In this document: positions 2,831 to 37,789 of the stretch, one piece after another
How positions within the stretch are numbered: position 1 is the first letter of the stretch
Layout of the letters: every line of letters begins with the position of its first letter
Assembly (NCBI GenBank): GCA_963662275.1
Contig: OY759316.1
Location: 3,264,001-3,328,000, forward strand
Length of the DNA: 64,000 nucleotides
DNA from: Candidatus Cloacimonadales bacterium
Lineage (GTDB): Bacteria > Cloacimonadota > Cloacimonadia > Cloacimonadales > DAONDQ01
Reading direction: 5' to 3'
Program-made: the position numbers and the translations under genes
Notes under the pieces: generated by a model
What the model saw: the letters and a program-made list of their open reading frames with translations, nothing else
Told to the model about the DNA's origin: nothing
Database searches by the model: none

Positions 2831-3884
2831 CTATAACCAACTTCGTAGACTTCTGGAAATGCGTCAAGTGAATTCAGGAAATTTAACCACGAAACACACG
2901 AAATACACGAAAACAGATATTGTAAGGTAAGGATCAACGGATCAGAATCGTCTGGCATGTCGTAGAGTAGGACTCCGTTCCTGCTTCTGCTTTCGTTCTT
3001 CGCATTTCGCACTACGTATTTCGTACTTCGTACTTCCTTAGAATCCTTAGTATAGTTTAGAGCCTGAAACTTAATTAAACATTATTACGTGTCGATTTTC
3101 GACATCAAAAACGACATGAATAGCTTGTCTTTAAAAAGAATTAATAAAGCGTATTTTTAAATATCCTGTTCTTGTATAACCCCAAACAAAAAGGAGTTAA
3201 AGTGTGAAATCTGAAAATCTCTTATCACGTTTATCAGTCTGTTTTATCGATTTCCTTATTTGCTGGTAGCTGATAATTCTGAAAAACTCCACAGGAGTGA
3301 AATCCGATAACCTGACGTGTGAACGTCAGGATAGCTATGGGAAAAGAATGATAAAACGTTTCAACCCAACGCGGGTGACACTTTTACCGGAACGCTGTTT
3401 TCAAACGGCTATGCTCTGCAACTTCAAAAAGCCTCATAAATTAAGCATTCCATTAGCAATGTAGGGGTTTGCGGAAGTAAACCCATCTGCTGAATGTTGT
3501 GATATCAGTGAAGCAAGAAAAGCAGTAAGTTCATCTAAAATCGGATGCTCTAAATCTCAACTATCTTAACAGTTGAACAGTTCTGCTTTAAAGGGGTTGG
3601 GGGGTCTCTTTCTGTTCTACATTGAGTGGCACTTTGTTGTACGATGGGATTGGTTATCCCAGAGAAATGCAGATTCCGATAATACCATTATCGAATACAA
3701 CACATTACCAATGTATGTTACAACATTGGTGGTTACTCCTTGAGCTGTGTGGAAACTCCTTAAGGTGTTGGCTTCTCTTCTAAAAAGCAACGTAAACGAA
3801 GCTGCCACGATTCCTGAAGTAATCACCACACCAAAACAGCTTACAAAGCTATAGTACAGGTAAAAAGGTAAGAAACCTAAAAAA

Positions 3885-4829
3885 CTACTGGACTGCCCTG
3901 CAGAGACGGACACCCTGGACGAAGTAGCTGACGTACGGGTTGACGTAGTACCGATTCGAAACCCGACAGTCGTAGGCATCGTTGCCCCAGTAACTGCCGC
4001 GTAGCACACGGTTGGGTCCGCTAACTGCACCCTGTGGATTCGTCTGCGCATCAGAGCTATAGGTGCCATACCAGTCCCAGCACCACTCATACACGTTGCC
4101 GCTCATATCATAGATTCCCAGAGCATTGGGAGCCTTCGTACCGACAGGATGAGATGTGTCCCCGGAGTTTGGATGGTACCACGCCACGGCATTCACATCA
4201 TCGCTGCCGATGTATAGATAATCCGGTGTGGAAGTTCCGCCCCTTGCTGCAAATTCCCACTCCGCTTCCGTAGGTAACCTGTACCCATTGGCTGTCCAGT
4301 TGCTGATTGCTGCATCCCAGGTAGCGTCATTTCCAGAAGTGGGAACTGTGCCCCAAGCTGTGGGATTTGTAGAACCACTGATCGTATAGACCGGAGTAAG
4401 ACCTTCGTTCAGACTGCGCAGGTTGCAATACTTCAGGATATCATACCTGGATACATAGTACACAGGATAGTTGCTTCCTACTCCGTATGTTGTTCCAAAT
4501 CCAAATGGATCGCTATTCCATGCTCCCATCACAGCCTCCCATTCGCCCTGCGTCAGCTCATACTTGCCAATCATAAACGATGATAACGTCACGCTGTGCG
4601 TTGGCAATTCCCATTCGATTGCGCCACCGTGTGTATCACCCATGGTGAAAGTACCCCCCGGCACCAACACCATCTGCCCAGGAGTTGTACCCTGGCTAAA
4701 AGTTATATCCGTAATTTCGTTCAGATTAAATGTGGTTGTACCGTTTGTAGTGTGCACATTCAGTTGAGCCTGCGCAAATAGAAAAGAGGTAAAAAGGATA
4801 AGGCAGCTAATAAGTAATATTTTATACAT
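3885..4829 (-). CDS. Secreted FGE-sulfatase (SUMF1/CLec-fold) domain protein; possible DGR target
   Basis: Signal peptide; MVLVPGGTFTMG, GYRLPTEAEWEFAARGG, PNALGIYDMSGNVYEWCWDWY, RVLRGSYW...GVRLCR. Confidence 0.9.
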   Translation of the reverse strand: MYKILLISCLILFTSFLFAQAQLNVHTTNGTTTFNLNEITDITFSQGTTPGQMVLVPGGTFTMGDTHGGAIEWELPTHSVTLSSFMIGKYELTQGEWEAVMGAWNSDPFGFGTTYGVGSNYPVYYVSRYDILKYCNLRSLNEGLTPVYTISGSTNPTAWGTVPTSGNDATWDAAISNWTANGYRLPTEAEWEFAARGGTSTPDYLYIGSDDVNAVAWYHPNSGDTSHPVGTKAPNALGIYDMSGNVYEWCWDWYGTYSSDAQTNPQGAVSGPNRVLRGSYWGNDAYDCRVSNRYYVNPYVSYFVQGVRLCRAVQ

Positions 4830-4838
4830 AACATACTC

Positions 4839-5288
4839 CTATTTCAGCATCAGCATTTTATTGACTTTGATTTGGTCATCGCATTTAACCTTATAAATAT
4901 AAGGTCCCGAGGCACAGGTATTGCCGGATTCATTCAAGCCATTCCAGGTCAGTTCGTGTACACCTTTAGTCATGTTCTCTTTTGCAAGAACTTTCACCAG
5001 TTGTCCTCTGATGTTATAAATTGCGACTTCCGTCTGATACGATTCTGACAATTCAAATTTGATGATGGTTGAGGGATTAAAAGGATTGGGATAATTAGTT
5101 AAAAACTTAATGGGGACTTTGGGCAGAAACGTTACCCAATCATTATTAGAGACGTTATTAAATGTGATCTGCTGAATATCCTGCACCTGGAACTCCGTAG
5201 TTGTTCCATTGGATAAATGGACAATCATGACATCACAATACAGCAGAAACGGCGCTAAACAGAGGCAGACAAGAAAGATATATCTCAT
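4839..5288 (-). CDS. Small secreted protein, essentially a FlgD-Ig/Por-secretion-type C-terminal domain
   Basis: Signal peptide; NYPNPFNPST, IYNIRGQLVK, WNG, SG.YIYK, KMLMLK. Confidence 0.85.
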   Translation of the reverse strand: MRYIFLVCLCLAPFLLYCDVMIVHLSNGTTTEFQVQDIQQITFNNVSNNDWVTFLPKVPIKFLTNYPNPFNPSTIIKFELSESYQTEVAIYNIRGQLVKVLAKENMTKGVHELTWNGLNESGNTCASGPYIYKVKCDDQIKVNKMLMLK

Positions 5289-5861
5289 AGTTCCTCCCTG
5301 ATGATTTGGATTATTTTTTTGAATTCACTTTTAATTGAAATTAAAATGTTTGATAATTATCGGTCAAGTTTTATTCTCTATTGACGTTGAAACGCCTTGG
5401 TTTGATGAATCAAACCGAACAACGAATGAATTCGTTGCTACGGTTATTCGTTGTTACGGTTACTAGTTGCTACGGTTTATTCGTTGTTCTGGTGATATAG
5501 TGGCTAGGTTTCAAACCCAACCCCAAAACAGCTTATAAAGCTAATGATGACTGTAAGAGGTCAGACGCATGGGTCTATCCCTACAATCAGATGCATTTCA
5601 TGTTCCAGTATATTAGCTTCAGGGATAGCCATAAACAAGTTCTTCCGTCTTGAATTTACCGAAAAAGCCTTTGACTGCATGTCTAAATCTTACTTTCATT
5701 TCAACCTATTTTCAGATATTTTAACACGAACTCACCCTCTCTGAAACTGACACCTGGTACCTGAAACCTGTCACCTTCTTCATTGTGTTTCGTGGTTACA
5801 TTCTTCCTTTTTCTTCTTCCTCTTTCAATTTACTTATTTGAGTCAACTATCATACGGAAAA

Positions 5862-6081: not shown

Positions 6082-6127
6082 AGGCGAAAGGAATTCGCCT
6101 CGCACGCCGATAAGCAATCGGCGTTCC
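6082..6127. repeat. 46-bp twin-hairpin repeat; copy at 15323-15368
   Basis: AGGCGAA-loop-TTCGCCT CGC ACGCCGAT-loop-ATCGGCGT TCC. Confidence 0.9.
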
Positions 6128-7282: not shown

Positions 7283-7388
7283 AAAACGGGCTACTCGGTG
7301 TGAGCAGCCCGTTTGTATTATGTTTCTTTTAGCTCAAGTTTCATAACGCACGGGGTGCGTTATGCCACCTCACGGGGTGAGGCGTTCC
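7283..7388. repeat. 106-bp structured direct repeat, left copy
   Basis: Ungapped similarity to 12725-12830. Confidence 0.9.
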
Positions 7389-7440
7389 CCCTGTACACTG
7401 TTACCCTGTATGCTGTTCGCTGTACGCAGTACGCTTCTGC

Positions 7441-9888
7441 CTATCTCACCAGCATCATTTTCTTCATATCTGTATAGTCTTTCGTTACCATACGATAGAA
7501 GTAAATTCCGCTAGCTACGGCTTTACCATTGGCATCCGTGCCATCCCAATTGGCTGTATAGGAACCGGCTGCCTTATTATTATCTATATAACTCCGAATA
7601 AGCTGACCTTTTACGTTATAGATATCAATCCTGACATCCTGCGCATCTTTCAAATCATACCGAAGAGATGTGCTTTCCTTGAATGGATTGGGATATGCAT
7701 TCAAGAGACATGTGAAGGCAGGAATAACCGAAGGAGTATCAGGATTAGAGCCGGCAGATGCCATCAGTGGACCGAAGTATTCGGTGGAACCACTCTGGGA
7801 GACGCTTTCCAGCCAGAAGTAATAAGGACTGTCCATCGCTTCATCCTGGTAAGCGAAGTTATAGGTGGTTTGCGTACCTGCACTGACACCATTGGATATG
7901 AGTGAAGTATTCAATTTTGTGGCAGAGCTTAAGTTGTTCATAGCTGAGCGCAGGACGTTAAAGCCCATGTGATTCGTTTCAGATTGGGTGATCCACTGCA
8001 GGCTGACATAATAGGATGAAGTTACCGCTGCTGTGAAGGAAGACAGTTCTACAGGCAACTCTACCTCTGCCCTATTATTGAAGACAACTTCAAAATCACC
8101 ATTCGCTTTGACAGCAGGGACTGTGAATGTGCATTGTGTATTCGTCCAGGTTCCGTCATTCGGATTGAATATTGTTGTAAATCCATTGGGAATGAAGCGA
8201 TAGGAGATTGAGCCGGGAGTAAAGCCCAGATTATGGGTAAAGGTAATAACTGCTCCGGAAAGAGAGCCGGAAGAAACATTGAGAACCAATGAAAGCCCTG
8301 AATTATTCAATAACGGATCAGGAGTTGTCCAGTACAGAGTGGCATTCACGGTCGGATCACCGGTTATATTAGTGATATGCAGATCGGTATCCAGCTCAAG
8401 ACCGGTGGTTGTATCATAGATAGGAGATGGATTCAGATCAACAACACCGCCGTTTGCATCTCCGGAAGAAGTCACTTTATCGTCACCATTCATCGTAATA
8501 CGGAAGTTATCGATATAAACATCTACTGTAGTTTCGAAGAAGTACATAAAGATATAATTATCAGATACAGATGGTGTAAAAACATATCTGCTAAGTGCGT
8601 AATCTGTATTGGTGACCATCGTGTGAAAACCACCACACAAACCTCGATTTCCAGTATCAAAACCATTATATCTAAGAATAAATACCTCGTCTGATGGGGG
8701 CATTGGCTGAGAGACACGGTAATTGTATTTGATTTCATATGTATTTCCTGCTATTAATCGAAACACGGGGCTCAGGATAATATTGTAACTATTATTGTAA
8801 TCTATGTCACCAGCCATCTTCATAGCATAGTTAGCCTCGCCATCGGGACAACGAAGACCCAAATGCATACCTGCTCTGTTGGGACTTTTCTGTGACACAG
8901 TAAAGATATTTTCAAGGGTTTCAGTATCCAAACCTCCTGCTGCTTTCTTTCCAGCAATATAAGATAGATTGTTCCATGTTAAATCCTCTACTTCGAAGTC
9001 TGCAAGATATGGGAAATCAACTATTTCATTTGTGAGTAATAAACCTCGTGTTCTGAATTTATAGACTTGGGAATTGACAGAATGTCCTAAATTATCCTCA
9101 AAATTGACATACCAGTAATAGGTTGTTTCATTTGCCAAAGGTTCTGCAGGAACAAACTGAGCATTAGTCCCATGATAGAGTAAACTGTAATTCAAGCTAT
9201 CTGTGCTGATATACACTGAAGAAGTGTATGACAAATTATAAAGATACCAGGAGAATTGTGTATCTATCTGAACATCTGTAGCGTTATTGCTCGGTGTAAT
9301 ATATAGTAACGGCGGACCTGCAGTGATACGGAAATTATCAAAATTTAAACTCGCTTGCTCAGTGCCACTCGCTACTCCTCCATAGTAGAAATATTTGGAT
9401 GAGCCACCCAAGAAACCAAGATTAATTGTACTCTCACTCCATCGATTTCCATTCCACTCACCATCAACTGCCAGATTCAATGTTTCGAGTTCCTGAGCCG
9501 TATAATAACCTGAGTTATCAGTACCCATCAATACTCGCAACCAAGTAGCATCATGGGTAAAATATGCATATCCGGAATAAGTAACTCGATAGAATTCTGA
9601 TCCTGCGGGGAAATCAACTCTTGGACTCGTCAGGTATGCAGTGTGATTTGCTGCTAAATTTACCCAGTTATTACCATCTGCAGCACCTGGTACAGAAGGA
9701 TTTGTTTGTTCAACAGAACCAAGTGAAAAAACATTACCAGATGGGGCAGTCCATCCAGCTGGTGGGAATGTTGGACCTTCGAAGCTTTCCTGATAAGGGA
9801 AGGTATTGACTACCGGTTCGACAGCAAAAAGCTGACTTAGGATGCCACAGGTAAAAATCAAAATGATTAGAAAGATAATCTGTTTCAT
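7441..9888 (-). CDS. Secreted multidomain surface protein (adhesin-like beta-sandwiches, FN3-like, LPVELSSF linker, FlgD-Ig/Por-type CTD), paralogue B
   Basis: Signal peptide after AGGAG RBS; FPYQESFEG.TFPPAGW; ETTYYW; AYPNPF...IYNVKGQLIR...WDG...SGIYFYR. Confidence 0.85.
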   Translation of the reverse strand: MKQIIFLIILIFTCGILSQLFAVEPVVNTFPYQESFEGPTFPPAGWTAPSGNVFSLGSVEQTNPSVPGAADGNNWVNLAANHTAYLTSPRVDFPAGSEFYRVTYSGYAYFTHDATWLRVLMGTDNSGYYTAQELETLNLAVDGEWNGNRWSESTINLGFLGGSSKYFYYGGVASGTEQASLNFDNFRITAGPPLLYITPSNNATDVQIDTQFSWYLYNLSYTSSVYISTDSLNYSLLYHGTNAQFVPAEPLANETTYYWYVNFEDNLGHSVNSQVYKFRTRGLLLTNEIVDFPYLADFEVEDLTWNNLSYIAGKKAAGGLDTETLENIFTVSQKSPNRAGMHLGLRCPDGEANYAMKMAGDIDYNNSYNIILSPVFRLIAGNTYEIKYNYRVSQPMPPSDEVFILRYNGFDTGNRGLCGGFHTMVTNTDYALSRYVFTPSVSDNYIFMYFFETTVDVYIDNFRITMNGDDKVTSSGDANGGVVDLNPSPIYDTTTGLELDTDLHITNITGDPTVNATLYWTTPDPLLNNSGLSLVLNVSSGSLSGAVITFTHNLGFTPGSISYRFIPNGFTTIFNPNDGTWTNTQCTFTVPAVKANGDFEVVFNNRAEVELPVELSSFTAAVTSSYYVSLQWITQSETNHMGFNVLRSAMNNLSSATKLNTSLISNGVSAGTQTTYNFAYQDEAMDSPYYFWLESVSQSGSTEYFGPLMASAGSNPDTPSVIPAFTCLLNAYPNPFKESTSLRYDLKDAQDVRIDIYNVKGQLIRSYIDNNKAAGSYTANWDGTDANGKAVASGIYFYRMVTKDYTDMKKMMLVR

Positions 9889-10068
9889 TTGTTTACTCCT
9901 TTTTTTGATATTCATTTTAATCTAGAGAAAAGAAGACCAGAACTAGCTCTCCCCTAAAATGTTCAACCCCCCTTAATCCCCCCTCGGGGAGGGGGGTAAA
10001 TGGGAGGGGAATCAGACAAGTCTTCTCTGCTCTGCAATTCTTAATTTTTAATTTTTAATTCTTAATTC

Positions 10069-12504
10069 CTATCTCACCAGCATCATCTTCTTCATATCAG
10101 TATAATCTTTAGTTACCATACGATAGAAGTAGATTCCACTGGCTAAGGCTTTGCCATTAGTATCTGTCCCGTCCCAGGTGGCTGTATAGGTACCGGCTGC
10201 CTTATTATTATCTATATAACTCCGAATAAGCTGACCTTTGACATTATAAATATCGATCCTGACATTCTGCGCATCCTTCAAATCGTAACGAAGAGATGTG
10301 CTTTCCTTGAAAGGATTGGGATATGCATTCAAGAGACATGTGAAGGCAGGAATAACAGAAGGTGTATCTGGATTTGAGCCGGCTGATGCCATCAGTGGAC
10401 CGAAGTATTCGGTGGAACCACTCTGGGATACACTTTCCAGCCAGAAGTAATAAGGACTGTCCATCGCTTCATCCTGGTAAGCAAAGTTATAGGTGGTTTG
10501 CGTACCTGCACTGACTCCATTGGAAATGAGTGATGTATTCAATTTTGTGGCTGAGCTTAAGTTGTTCATGGCTGAGCGCAGAACATTAAAACCCATATGA
10601 TTAGTTTCAGACTGCGTTACCCACTGCAGGCTGACATAATAGGATGAAGTTACCGCTGCTGTGAAGGAAGACAGTTCTACAGGCAACTCTACCTCTGCCC
10701 TATTATTGAAGACAACTTCAAAATCACCATTCGCTTTGACAGCAGGGACTGTGAATGTGCATTGTGTATTCGTCCAGGTTCCGTCATTCGGATTGAATAT
10801 TGTTGTAAATCCATTGGGAATGAAACGATAGGAGATTGAACCGGGTGTAAAGCCCAGGTTATGGGTAAAGGTGATGATCGCTCCTGAAAGAGAACCGGCA
10901 GAGACATTGAGTACCAATGAAAGCCCGGAGTTGTTCAATAACGGATCAGGAGTTGTCCAGTAAAGAGTGGCATTCACTGTCGGATCACCTGTAATATTGG
11001 TGATTTGCAGTTCGGTATCCAGCTCAAGACCGGTGGTTGAATCATAGATTGGAGCCGGATTCAGATCAACAACGCCACCGTTTGCATCTCCGGAAGCTGT
11101 CACTTTATCTTCACCATTCATCGAAATACGGAAGTTATCAATGTAAATATCAACAGATGAATAGTAATAAAAGAAAAAGAGATAATCATCCGTTCTAGTT
11201 GGAGTAATGATCACTCTCGAAAGTGCATAATCCGTATTCGTGATCATAAAATATGTATTCATCATCTCTTCGGTACTTCCAGGGGCTTGATAGAAAGCAA
11301 ATAAACCCCCACCCTCATTTCCCATAGGTTGGGAAACACGATAATTGAACTTAACTTCATACGTTGTACCTGCAACCAAGCGAACAAATGGAGAAAAGAG
11401 AATACCCAATACACCATTCTGCGCGGATGGCATCTTCATTGCATAATTAACTCCACCATCAAGACAACGTTCAGCATATTGCACCTGTTCTCTCGTTGAG
11501 CCCTTCTTAATACCGAATATTTTTTTTCCCAGAGCATCCATATCCTGAGCTTCTGGTATACTTTTCCCAACATTTAAGTTCGCTGTATTATTCCATGATA
11601 AGTCATCTACCTGGAAGTCATCCAAGTAAGGAAAGTCAACTATTTCGCCCGGCATGGGTGTGTTTCCTCTTGTTGTGAAAGAACATACAGGGGTATTGAC
11701 TGAGTGTCCCAAATTATCTTGAATCTGGACATACCAGTAATAGGTTGTTTCAATATTGAGAGGATTGTCAGGGGTATTCTGATTGCTTGTTCCAGTATAG
11801 AGTAAATTGTAATTCAAGCTATCAGTGCTTATATAGACTGAATAAGTATATGCCGAATTGGAAATGCCCCACCAAAATGCTGTAGTTGGACGAATATCAA
11901 CAGCATGATTAGCAGGTGTAACTTCGAGAACAGGAGGTCCGGCAGTTATCCGGAAATCATCAAAATTCAAATCTGCACCCCAAGCTTGACCACCTATAAA
12001 GAAATACTTTGCAGAACCATCCATAAAACCTAGATGATCTGTAAGCGTTCTCCAGCGACTTCCATTCCATTCAGCATCATTCCCCATATTCCATACATCA
12101 ACTTGCTCACTCGAATTAGGATTAGTATCAGATCCCATCCTTACTCTAAATATCATAGAGGAAGGTGAAAAACAATATCCAGAAATACTTAACTGATAGA
12201 ATTCAGATCCGGAAGGAAACTCAAATTTAGGACTGGTAATCAATCCATCGTTTCCAGCTGCCATATTTACCCAGTTATTGCCATCTATAGCACCTGGTAC
12301 GACAGGATTTGTTTGTTCAGCAGAGTTAAGTGAAAAAATGCCTGGAGCAAACATCGGGTTTACTGACCATCCCGCTGGCGGGAAGGTGCTGCCTTCAAAG
12401 CTTTCCTGATAAGGGAAAGTATTGATGGCAACTGCTTCAGCAAAAAGCTGGCTAAGGATGCAACAGGTGAAAGCTAAGATGACAAGAATGAGTATTTTTT
12501 TCAT
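10069..12504 (-). CDS. Secreted multidomain surface protein with FlgD-Ig/Por-type CTD, paralogue A
   Basis: Same architecture as 7441-9888; C-terminal ~355 aa nearly identical. Confidence 0.85.
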   Translation of the reverse strand: MKKILILVILAFTCCILSQLFAEAVAINTFPYQESFEGSTFPPAGWSVNPMFAPGIFSLNSAEQTNPVVPGAIDGNNWVNMAAGNDGLITSPKFEFPSGSEFYQLSISGYCFSPSSMIFRVRMGSDTNPNSSEQVDVWNMGNDAEWNGSRWRTLTDHLGFMDGSAKYFFIGGQAWGADLNFDDFRITAGPPVLEVTPANHAVDIRPTTAFWWGISNSAYTYSVYISTDSLNYNLLYTGTSNQNTPDNPLNIETTYYWYVQIQDNLGHSVNTPVCSFTTRGNTPMPGEIVDFPYLDDFQVDDLSWNNTANLNVGKSIPEAQDMDALGKKIFGIKKGSTREQVQYAERCLDGGVNYAMKMPSAQNGVLGILFSPFVRLVAGTTYEVKFNYRVSQPMGNEGGGLFAFYQAPGSTEEMMNTYFMITNTDYALSRVIITPTRTDDYLFFFYYYSSVDIYIDNFRISMNGEDKVTASGDANGGVVDLNPAPIYDSTTGLELDTELQITNITGDPTVNATLYWTTPDPLLNNSGLSLVLNVSAGSLSGAIITFTHNLGFTPGSISYRFIPNGFTTIFNPNDGTWTNTQCTFTVPAVKANGDFEVVFNNRAEVELPVELSSFTAAVTSSYYVSLQWVTQSETNHMGFNVLRSAMNNLSSATKLNTSLISNGVSAGTQTTYNFAYQDEAMDSPYYFWLESVSQSGSTEYFGPLMASAGSNPDTPSVIPAFTCLLNAYPNPFKESTSLRYDLKDAQNVRIDIYNVKGQLIRSYIDNNKAAGTYTATWDGTDTNGKALASGIYFYRMVTKDYTDMKKMMLVR

Positions 12505-12724: not shown

Positions 12725-12830
12725 AAAACGGGCTAGTCGTTGTGAGTAGCCCATTAGTATTATTTTTCTTTTGGCACAGGGTTCAGAACGCACGGGGTGC
12801 GTTCTGCCACCTCACGGGGTGAGGCGTTCC
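12725..12830. repeat. 106-bp structured direct repeat, right copy
   Basis: Matches 7283-7388 with compensatory stem changes. Confidence 0.9.
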
Positions 12831-12862
12831 TCCCATTCTGCAATGCATTTGTTAATTCTCTT

Positions 12863-14982: not shown

Positions 14983-15375
14983 TTTGAAAACAAGGAAAAA
15001 AGTACCTCAACATAACCACAATACAACCAAAACACGACCGCCCATAGGAGCGGTTGTCCTGCGGTAGTGTAGCGGTGGTACTGCGGTGCTGCAGCGGTTG
15101 TTTTTAATGAGGCATTTCGACTCCGCTCAATGACCATCAATTCACTCGGAGAACTTAGCTTTCATCCTCGGTAGCGAAAACCTGTTTTCAGGGAAGTTCA
15201 AATTCGATATTTTCACAAGTATAACAAGAACGGAGACTTGCTCTACAGAGTATTGGAGAAAGAAGGCAGTAGTTAATAGGGTGTAGGAAGTAGAAAAGTA
15301 CACTATCAAAGCAGATTAAGAGAGGCGAAAAGAATTCGCCTCGCACGCCGATAAGAAATCGGCGTTCCTTCCTAC

Positions 15376-34417: not shown

Positions 34418-34765
34418 TCATCTTTCCTTAGAATTGCCAAATCTTGTTATTTAGCAATACTAATTCTCTACTATAGGTGATTTTGTCAAAGAAAATGAGA
34501 ATAACACTCTCCTAGAGGGGGATACAAGAGGAATTATTGAGAGCCTCATCTGAACTTAATTGTAGCTCCCCCGTTCTACCTCCCCTTGAGAGGGGGGGTA
34601 AGGAACCAGGCTTTGGGAATGTGTATATACTTAAAAAAGCAATTTTGAAGAGGATCAGCTATTCCACATTTGGGAAAGAAAAGCTAATACCCCTTGGGAA
34701 GGAAATGCTAATCCCCCCTTGGGAAGGGGGGGAGGGGGGTCATTCTGAATCTGTTACCTGTCACC

Positions 34766-37367: not shown

Positions 37368-37789
37368 TAGACCCCCCTACCCCCCTTCTCAAGGGGGGAT
37401 TAAGGAGCCTTATCTGAACTTAATTTTAGTCTCACCTTTCTAATCCCCCCTTGAGAAGGGGGGTTAAGGAGCCTTATCTGAACTTAATTTTAGTCTCCAC
37501 TTTCTAATCCCCCCTTGAGAAGGGGGGTTAAGGAGCCTTATCTGAACTTAATTTTAGTCTCCACTTTCTAATCCCCCCTTGAGAAGGGGGGTTAAGGAGC
37601 CTTATCTGAACTTAATTTTAGTACCCTTTCTAATCCCCCCTTGAGAAGGGGGGTTAAGGAGCCTTATCTGAACTTAATTTTAGTACCCTTTCTAATCCCC
37701 CCTTGAGAAGGGGGGTTAAGGAGCCTTATCTGAACTTAATTTTAGTACCCTTTCTAATCCCCCCTTGAGAAGGGGGGTAGGGGGGTCTA
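37368..37789. repeat. Tandem array of six 62-64-bp palindromic units bounded by a perfect 35-bp inverted repeat
   Basis: Unit starts at 37401, 37465, 37529, 37593, 37655 and 37717; 37368-37402 is the exact reverse complement of 37755-37789. Confidence 0.95.

Follow-up and report, generated by a model that had tools for sequence, protein, structure and literature searches.

We analyzed a stretch of 64,000 nt (hereafter the window) from the complete genome of a Candidatus Cloacimonadales bacterium (assembly GCA_963662275.1, contig OY759316.1; 4.38 Mb, 39% G+C), corresponding to genome positions 3264001-3328000, and focused on two adjacent genes on its minus strand at 3885..5288. The upstream open reading frame (ORF; 5288..4839), which contains LLYCDVMIVHLSNGTTTEFQVQDIQQITFNN, encodes a protein of 149 aa that we call the carrier. 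It consists of a putative signal peptide, a motif of ~25 aa and a type-A C-terminal domain (CTD) of type IX secretion systems (T9SS), with no further part. The downstream ORF (4829..3885), which contains FAQAQLNVHTTNGTTTFNLNEITDITFSQ, encodes a protein of 314 aa, the cargo, in which a putative signal peptide and the same motif are followed by an FGE-sulfatase/C-type-lectin-like (CLec) domain that stops 4 aa before the C-terminus, without a CTD. This layout of two ORFs, with a gap of 9 nt, a shared motif and a CTD on the small protein alone, is as an earlier note on this DNA had described it. Comparisons within the genome, among relatives and across protein databases support the view that the pair is conserved as one functional unit.

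The carrier starts with a putative signal peptide (aa 1-19, MRYIFLVCLCLAPFLLYC then D; 5232..5288, minus strand, like all features of the pair), assigned from its hydrophobic N-terminus and from a helix at residues 2-15 in the AlphaFold2 (AF2) model; its cleavage site is putative. It is followed by the N-terminal motif (aa 20-45, VMIVHLSNGTTTEFQVQDIQQITFNN; 5154..5231), delimited by motif profile matches and by a hairpin in the model, and by a linker (aa 46-65; 5094..5153) in which AF2 places a short helix at residues 48-57 with low confidence (predicted local distance difference test, pLDDT, ~50-53). The CTD makes up the rest of the protein (aa 66-149; 4842..5093), ahead of the stop codon at 4839-4841. 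In Pfam it matches FlgD_ig (PF13860; residues 76-136, 43.7 bits), Por_Secre_tail (PF18962; residues 66-145, 30.4 bits for a cut-off of 27) and CHU_C (PF13585), and in NCBIfam it matches TIGR04183 with 38.9 bits (cut-off 23) over residues 66-145 of 149, that is, at the extreme C-terminus. There is no passenger domain between the signal peptide and the CTD; the ~45 residues of motif and linker found there have no Pfam or NCBIfam match, and neither database holds a family for the motif itself. A search for homologs of the carrier returned 27 proteins, named only "hypothetical protein" or given a generic T9SS sorting-domain label, and Lys144 of the CTD shows no variation among 25 carriers.

The AF2 model of the carrier (mean pLDDT 77.9) comprises the signal helix, a hairpin, the low-confidence linker and a seven-strand sandwich. 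The motif is predicted to form only a beta hairpin (strands 20-24 and 30-34, pLDDT ~76-78), and the CTD a seven-strand beta-sandwich at residues 74-148 (pLDDT ~90). Foldseek matched this model to FlgD and to the CTDs of PorZ (5m11) and PorU (6za2), both at E 4e-4, RemZ (8gl8_D, TMt 0.63) and NucA (8glk_D, TMt 0.62). For a relative's carrier with two motifs, the AF2 model (mean pLDDT 74.2) has six consecutive strands (residues 22-71, pLDDT ~80-87), followed by a disordered linker and then the CTD, which VIA relates to FlgD (Z 10.0) and to the PorU CTD (Z 9.3). With both models, the VIA and Foldseek results are dominated by the CTD and not by the motif unit, and a look-up in the ESM Atlas with three tandem motifs gave no usable match.

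The junction between the genes (4830..4840) holds both the intergenic gap and a Shine-Dalgarno sequence: 9 nt separate the ORFs (4830-4838), and an AGGAG that overlaps the TAG stop codon of the carrier lies 6-7 nt from the ATG of the cargo. The cargo opens with a putative signal peptide (aa 1-21, ...SFLFAQA then Q; 4767..4829), again assigned from a hydrophobic N-terminus and with a putative cleavage site, after which the protein reads QLNVHTTNGTTTFNLNEITDITFSQ. The motif, located by motif profile matches, spans aa 22-48 (QLNVHTTNGTTTFNLNEITDITFSQGT; 4686..4766). The FGE-sulfatase/CLec domain spans aa 52-310 (3900..4676) and is a full-length match to PF03781 (profile positions 4-254 of 255; 160.7 bits for a cut-off of 23.3; E 6.6e-47); the best NCBIfam matches of the protein are all far under cut-off. 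A promoter and terminator scan of 3300-5800 found sites no more frequent than in shuffled sequences.

Cassettes and secretion machinery of the source genome

The carrier and cargo motifs resemble each other at borderline significance. Across the 13,930 ORFs of the genome (2.05 million residues), cross-class E-values of profile or single-sequence searches range from 0.03 to 0.9, and those of single-sequence searches from 0.07 to 0.9. The best match outside the query's own class was the partner class in 2/2 profile and 2/2 single-sequence searches, and a joint motif profile retrieved exactly 11 ORFs genome-wide (4.38 Mb), five small proteins of 149-150 aa and six FGE proteins of 295-314 aa. Ten of the 11 pair up into five cassettes, all in the same order and 9 nt apart, and the eleventh is a solo FGE gene. 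Since the partner class comes out best, the joint profile is confined to the cassettes and the motif lies at the mature N-terminus in both classes, the resemblance does not appear to be a matter of chance.

The surroundings of the five cassettes are unrelated to each other, and no conserved third gene was found beside them. A gene for a PorV-like barrel (317 aa, genome 4327457-4328410) lies ~1 kb downstream of cassette D only and is not seen at the other four. DNA identity between cassettes is ~85% for the carrier gene and for the opening ~150 nt of the FGE gene, and the FGE domain has diverged further. The copies are old, with synonymous divergence (dS) of 0.3-1.2 among paralogs, and ratios of nonsynonymous to synonymous divergence (dN/dS) among the five carrier paralogs are 0.06-0.12 for the whole protein, 0.04-0.14 for motif and linker and 0.03-0.07 for the CTD. 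Codons 1-50 of the FGE proteins give 0.05-0.11. All five cassettes are under purifying selection.

T9SS core genes are encoded in the source genome: PorU scores 582 bits (cut-off 420) and SprA 282.6 bits, or 456 bits with neighboring matches (cut-off 200). According to a local CTD profile, 262 ORFs have a CTD at their C-terminus; their median length is ~720 aa, and 13 of them are <=220 aa long, five of which are the carriers. None of the 32 FGE-domain ORFs of the genome carries a CTD. The FGE domain ends <=17 residues from the C-terminus in 29/32 of them, and two multi-domain proteins also end in FGE. The absence of a CTD in cis from the FGE proteins gives a reason to supply the tail in trans. 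For the FGE fold in this genome, anchoring through the N-terminus appears to be the rule. Several FGE proteins begin with signals that look lipoprotein-like by eye (...LLTSCMKERK, ...LVSCDKKTTEP).

A second arrangement was noticed at four loci outside the window (genome 3036192-3037691, 3211592-3213122, 4247351-4249257 and 3545260-3548665). Here, CTD-less FGE proteins of 362-644 aa start with an Ig-like "PVV.N.TA.QRTDG" region, and a CTD protein (131, 134, 255 or 482 aa) precedes each of them at -32 to 22 nt. These CTD proteins have a common N-terminal stretch of their own (ALTGF/ALTSF...). Supplying a CTD in trans may therefore be a wider theme for the FGE proteins of this genome.

Recurrence of the pair and separation of CTD from cargo

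We built the motif profile stepwise and read the loci of relatives one by one in genomes of the order and of the phylum. Counting the source genome, the motif was found in 26/203 genomes of the order and in 27/232 of the phylum, and the pair is present in 23 other genomes of the phylum. In other genomes, 34 tail-less motif genes had readable upstream DNA, once three loci at contig ends (L064, L076, L079) and two weak spurious matches (L087, L088) had been left out. A small motif+CTD gene is the partner of 25 of these 34, and in 24 cases it directly precedes the cargo gene on the same strand, with gaps of 9-97 nt. The small upstream genes measure 149-233 aa as called and encode one or two motif copies followed by a CTD. 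At L089 (G183:C35), carrier and cargo are separated by a gene for an M23-peptidase-CTD protein. This locus has a repeat of 296 nt with 97.6% identity (L089:155-450 and 2183-2478) at the CTD-coding 3' ends of the inserted and carrier genes, which suggests that the intervening gene was inserted through recombination at the CTD.

Seen from the carrier side, the small motif+CTD genes that could be read number 30, with 5 in this genome and 25 in others. Every one has a motif cargo gene downstream, which in 29 cases is the very next gene. The earlier note had proposed a search with a hidden Markov model of the motif for repeated adjacency of CTD-plus and CTD-minus motif carriers, and such adjacency is what we observed (25/34 and 30/30). 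The cargo fold changes from pair to pair while the motif persists: paired cargos include FGE, CHB_HEX_C+FGE, Laminin_G_3, CpeT/CpcT, DOMON, Cthe_2159, a PD40/DUF5050 propeller and Big_1-like domains, as well as one weak polysaccharide-lyase-like match and some proteins without any match.

A profile made of 57 motif sequences was then compared with 1.84 billion representative proteins, giving 212 matches at E <= 0.001, and the best 150 of these 212 were scanned with Pfam. Among these top 150, a CTD is present in 17 proteins, all 149-211 aa long and devoid of further domains; a domain of another kind is present in 65, not one of which has a CTD; and the remaining 68, many of them short fragments, have no Pfam match. 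The local CTD profile agrees, with real CTDs confined to motif proteins of <=211 aa. Cargo domain and CTD are mutually exclusive among these motif proteins, as a piggy-back or trans-anchor system would lead one to expect. The 65 cargo-domain proteins comprise 30 with Laminin_G_3, 9 with Fib_succ_major, 4 with FGE, 3 with LTD, 2 with Kelch, 2 with Cthe_2159 and singles, and the motif was found before at least 15 different folds. In 129/149 top-hit proteins, the first motif copy begins at residues 15-29, straight after the signal peptide. By the local profile, there are 1-3 tandem copies per motif protein, and one 965-aa protein has 10 matched stretches. The CTDs of some carriers are of the "VYPNP..." kind, by eye typical of Bacteroidota.

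As a control, a profile search of genome contigs with a LamG-class alignment gave 79 loci from many phyla, 78 of which are without the motif; 74 LamG homologs with intact 5' ends were counted. Only one of the 74 has the motif. This homolog, L136, from a Bacteroidota metagenome-assembled genome (MAG), has no CTD in cis and lies downstream of a 154-aa CTD gene at a distance of 31 nt. The mature N-terminus of the 154-aa product is motif-like by eye, yet under the profile threshold. A small upstream CTD gene is absent from all 73 motif-less LamG homologs, 9 of which have a CTD in cis.

A CTD possibly supplied in trans

We favor, at slightly better than an even chance, a reading in which the small protein lends its T9SS CTD in trans to its motif-bearing neighbor, as carrier or anchor. 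We do so because gene order is fixed and spacing tight, CTD and cargo domains are complementary, the motif is constant and sits at the mature N-terminus, and the FGE proteins lack a CTD in cis. Carrier and cargo would each reach the periplasm by Sec, where their two motifs, each a small beta meander, would associate. The carrier CTD would then engage PorV/SprA, and the folded passenger would cross the outer membrane alongside it; alternatively, the exported carrier might capture the passenger at the surface. After processing of the CTD by PorU, or through retention on a PorV-like barrel, the carrier would keep the binding protein attached to the cell surface at its N-terminus. We propose that the variable FGE tip needs a free C-terminus, and that the cargo therefore has no CTD of its own. 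Motif-motif binding, co-export and surface anchoring are, all three, steps that we infer.

To our knowledge, the T9SS substrates described so far all have a sorting domain in cis. Canonical type-A cargos, such as RemZ and RemA of Flavobacterium johnsoniae or RgpB of Porphyromonas gingivalis, have a CTD in cis and depend on PorV as shuttle, SprA as translocon and PorU as sortase. The carrier resembles these cargos in its C-terminal Ig-like sandwich of ~85 aa, which matches TIGR04183/PF18962, and starts with a putative Sec signal; PorU, SprA and a PorV-like protein are encoded in this genome. Unlike them, the CTD protein here has no passenger (~45 mature residues), and the binding protein is separate and CTD-less, with only the N-terminal motif in common. 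For the type-B CTD cargo SprB, the cognate PorP/SprF-like protein SprF is encoded adjacently. In both cases a surface protein is linked, here by proposal, to a helper gene next to it that is specific for this cargo and would aid its passage through the T9SS; SprF-like helpers, however, are outer-membrane barrels whose cargo keeps its CTD, whereas the helper here is a soluble mini-protein that bears the CTD itself. Cohesin-dockerin pairs offer an analogy only, in that a small module occurs on many domains and an anchor has the matching module. They have no sequence or fold relation to the present pair, in which both partners bear the same ~25-aa unit and binding is conjectural.

Two further likenesses come from published work. 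The invariant Lys near the carrier C-terminus recalls type-A CTDs as described in an excerpt of PMC10994853. According to the same excerpt, the CTD is the only part that the T9SS recognizes, within the pore of SprA and at the loops of PorV, and fusions of mCherry to a CTD were used as model substrates and resolved bound to the translocon. A CTD supplied in trans is compatible with this mechanism. In hitchhiker export, exemplified in an excerpt of PMC9251779 by Tat hydrogenase subunits and peroxisomal piggy-back import, the signal is on one subunit and a folded, signal-less partner travels along. A targeting signal on one partner only is likewise proposed here, but membrane, machinery and signal all differ.

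The earlier note had pictured a piggy-back display system. That proposal is supported in part, by the conserved unit and by the consistent absence of a CTD from motif cargo. The note had named singly occurring motif genes as an observation that would count against it, and these form a minority, with 9/34 tail-less motif genes elsewhere and 1/6 here having no adjacent carrier. The nine solo genes encode five DUF4886 proteins, one FGE protein, two proteins of 399-407 aa and one of 160 aa, the last of which sits 4 nt behind a CTD protein of 816+ aa. Several observations weigh against a CTD supplied in trans. Judged from these loci, the solo genes mean that the motif has some role without a neighboring carrier, which weakens obligate pairing, and two genomes (80% and 90% complete) have solo forms only. 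The motif was not found in the one genome of the same genus (G001, 99% complete). Motif identity within pairs is 0.331, compared with 0.327 between pairs (permutation p 0.37), and the sequences give no sign of pair-specific co-evolution of the motifs. Each pair has 2 to 3 motif copies (1-2 in the carrier, 1-2 in the cargo), and this variation makes a fold of fixed stoichiometry unlikely. The PorV-like protein of this genome scores only 152 bits, below the curated cut-off of 250. Finally, we found no description in the literature that we could search of T9SS export of a CTD-less partner or of a trans-acting CTD.

Several of these same observations would also suit a carrier that acts as a surface anchor only. 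The carrier would then be exported alone, and motif proteins would exit otherwise (in vesicles, by lysis or through an unknown exporter) and be captured via the motif, or a common third component (a glycan, an S-layer or a PorV/PorQ-like barrel) would bind both. Solo motif proteins fit this explanation, so that the motif may act without a neighboring carrier, as do the missing pair-specific co-variation and the PorV-like gene ~1 kb downstream of one cassette; an excerpt of PMC6247017 also reports a CTD-less Bacteroidetes enzyme that is abundant extracellularly, with vesicles suggested. We nonetheless consider it unlikely, as it leaves unexplained that 30/30 readable carriers are followed by a motif cargo in the same direction, 29 of them directly and at gaps of 9-97 nt, and neither a conserved third gene beside the cassettes nor an alternative exporter was identified.

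It is still less probable that the two are independent proteins with a generic N-terminal module (a stalk, or a unit for oligomerization or folding), the small protein being a minimal T9SS substrate with a role of its own, for example as a surface peptide, and adjacency reflecting co-regulation. The presence of 1-3 tandem copies (10 stretches in one protein) before at least 15 folds is what a generic module might show, and the borderline cross-class E-values point the same way. Such a module would not account for the strict exclusivity, with 0/65 cargo proteins having a CTD and 17/17 CTD proteins having no cargo, nor for the fixed order with the carrier first. Of the motif-less LamG homologs, 0/73 have an upstream small CTD gene. 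It is also difficult to see what a mature product of ~45 residues without other domain would do by itself.

If the CTD is indeed lent in trans, a more general statement becomes possible, which we hold tentatively and a little short of even: the T9SS would accept cargo via a ~45-residue carrier, made of the 25-aa beta motif and a CTD that is cleaved or kept, which docks by motif-motif strand pairing on whatever periplasmic protein starts with this motif, passes through SprA and tethers the cargo by its N-terminus, in a modular manner that extends to at least 15 folds. Such a system would be in use in Cloacimonadota and Bacteroidota and, judged by the Fib_succ_major cargo, probably in Fibrobacterota-like lineages too.

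The variable tip, its surroundings and implications

The FGE domain of the cargo ends in a hypervariable C-terminal cassette (aa ~277-311, RGSYW...GVRLCR; 3897..4001, minus strand), recognized in paralog alignments. Among the six FGE paralogs, identity falls to ~0.4 over the last 40 columns. In the three closest paralogs, which lie elsewhere in the genome and do not include the window copy, the final ~31 codons include 23 variable ones, of which 17 differ at positions 1-2 alone and keep the third base, as against 21/148 outside this stretch. Among the FGE paralogs of the five cassettes, dN/dS is 0.38-3.9 in the tip vs 0.07-0.19 in the core. This codon pattern is the one that adenine-directed (AAY to NNY) mutagenesis would leave. 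The FGE/CLec fold is the classic target fold of diversity-generating retroelements (DGRs), as in the variable proteins TvpA of Treponema and Mtd of a Bordetella phage. The cargo is like these proteins in its fold, in having a hypervariable cassette at the extreme C-terminus and in the NNY-type codon pattern among paralogs. It is unlike DGR systems in that a search of the complete genome found no reverse transcriptase (RT) of this kind or template repeat, and in that contigs from three runs of two studies all have the cassette in the same form.

The genome has 18 RVT_1 matches, 17 of which are multi-copy ORFs of group II intron type belonging to two or three families. The remaining RT is an 893-aa ORF (genome 3092718-3095399) with a central RT match and a C-terminal part that is Cas1-like by eye, as in an RT-Cas1-type fusion. 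An RT that looked single-copy was considered as a DGR RT and turned out on inspection to be a group II intron copy. No DGR-type RT was found among the 18 RVT_1 matches of the complete genome, a missed one not being fully excluded. Searches for a template were likewise negative. Adenine-bias BLAST returned no pair with adenine-biased mismatches (the best value, 0.51 at 69% identity, being between two coding FGE genes), a scan for matches plus adenine mismatches on both strands with six variable regions found no stretch of the genome that reaches 108/120 matches, and self-BLAST of 12 relatives' loci showed no template beside the FGE partners within the available flanks. Two truncated FGE fragments (genome 615351-615692 and ~1701075-1701368) were considered as templates; they lie beside identical 425-aa ORFs that resemble an insertion-sequence transposase, and were read as disrupted genes.

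Over 3801-4824, contigs of runs X1 and X3, which come from two studies, show 0 differences, and run X5 shows 0 differences over 3743-3956, covering the tip partly. The runs were compared as contigs, which break at paralogous parts and hide rare variants, and X4 and X5 are without cover of 3985-4041. From these comparisons, the tip cassette reads as a fossil of past diversification or as the product of ordinary positive selection, and not as an active system. The earlier note had called the tip hypervariable, which is true between paralogs, where the pattern is DGR-like, and does not extend to ongoing change, as neither a DGR RT nor a template was found and contigs from three runs agree in the tip, which one of them covers in part.

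That the tip is being rewritten now by an active DGR, and that the pair exists to display it, is accordingly very improbable, and for this genome largely refuted. Changes at codon positions 1-2, dN/dS of up to 3.9 in the tip and the classic target fold would all suit it. Against this, the RVT_1 matches are group II introns plus the one fusion that is Cas1-like by eye, no template was found in the genome or in the relatives' flanks, the tip is unchanged in the contigs of X1, X3 and, in part, X5, and DGR folds are not found in most cargo types, such as LamG and CpeT. A resemblance by chance or genes in decay, which the shortness of the motif and single-sequence cross-class E-values of 0.07-0.9 might suggest, are already refuted by five intact paralogous cassettes under purifying selection, by recurrence in 23 other genomes of the phylum and one Bacteroidota MAG, and by 212 matches in 1.84 billion proteins, nearly all at the mature N-terminus.

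Other features of the window were noted along with the pair. Units of 7 nt (CCTGTTA / CCTGTCA) with 14-nt spacing occur at 1724-1856, upstream of an infC-like gene, and a weaker copy of this run lies at 5739-5787, just upstream of the carrier gene region. A 46-nt repeat, 96% identical and with a hairpin-like AGGCGAA..TTCGCCT core, occupies two intergenic positions 9.2 kb apart (6082-6127 and 15323-15368). Two paralogous genes in tandem on the minus strand, at 7441-9915 and 10069-12504, encode CTD proteins of 824 and 811 aa; their 3' 300 nt are 91% identical, and three repeating upstream segments are 70-76% identical. A 109-nt repeat (88%) is found at 7283-7391 and 12725-12833. Further along, an intergenic array at 37381-37787 contains ~7 units of 62-64 nt (GAGCCTTATCTGAACTTAATTTTAG...CCCCCCTTGAGAAGGGGGG...), and one diverged copy of the unit lies 2.9 kb off, at 34541-34607.

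If the CTD is supplied in trans, secretome predictions based on CTDs would miss a class of surface proteins in the Fibrobacteres-Chlorobi-Bacteroidetes (FCB) group. Supply in trans would also explain how binding proteins with a constrained C-terminus, such as CLec/FGE tips and DGR-type cassettes, are delivered to the surface, and part of the reason for its origin may have been that it leaves CLec/DGR-type binding proteins with a free C-terminus. For surface display, the carrier and its cargo would then offer a natural docking pair of very small size.

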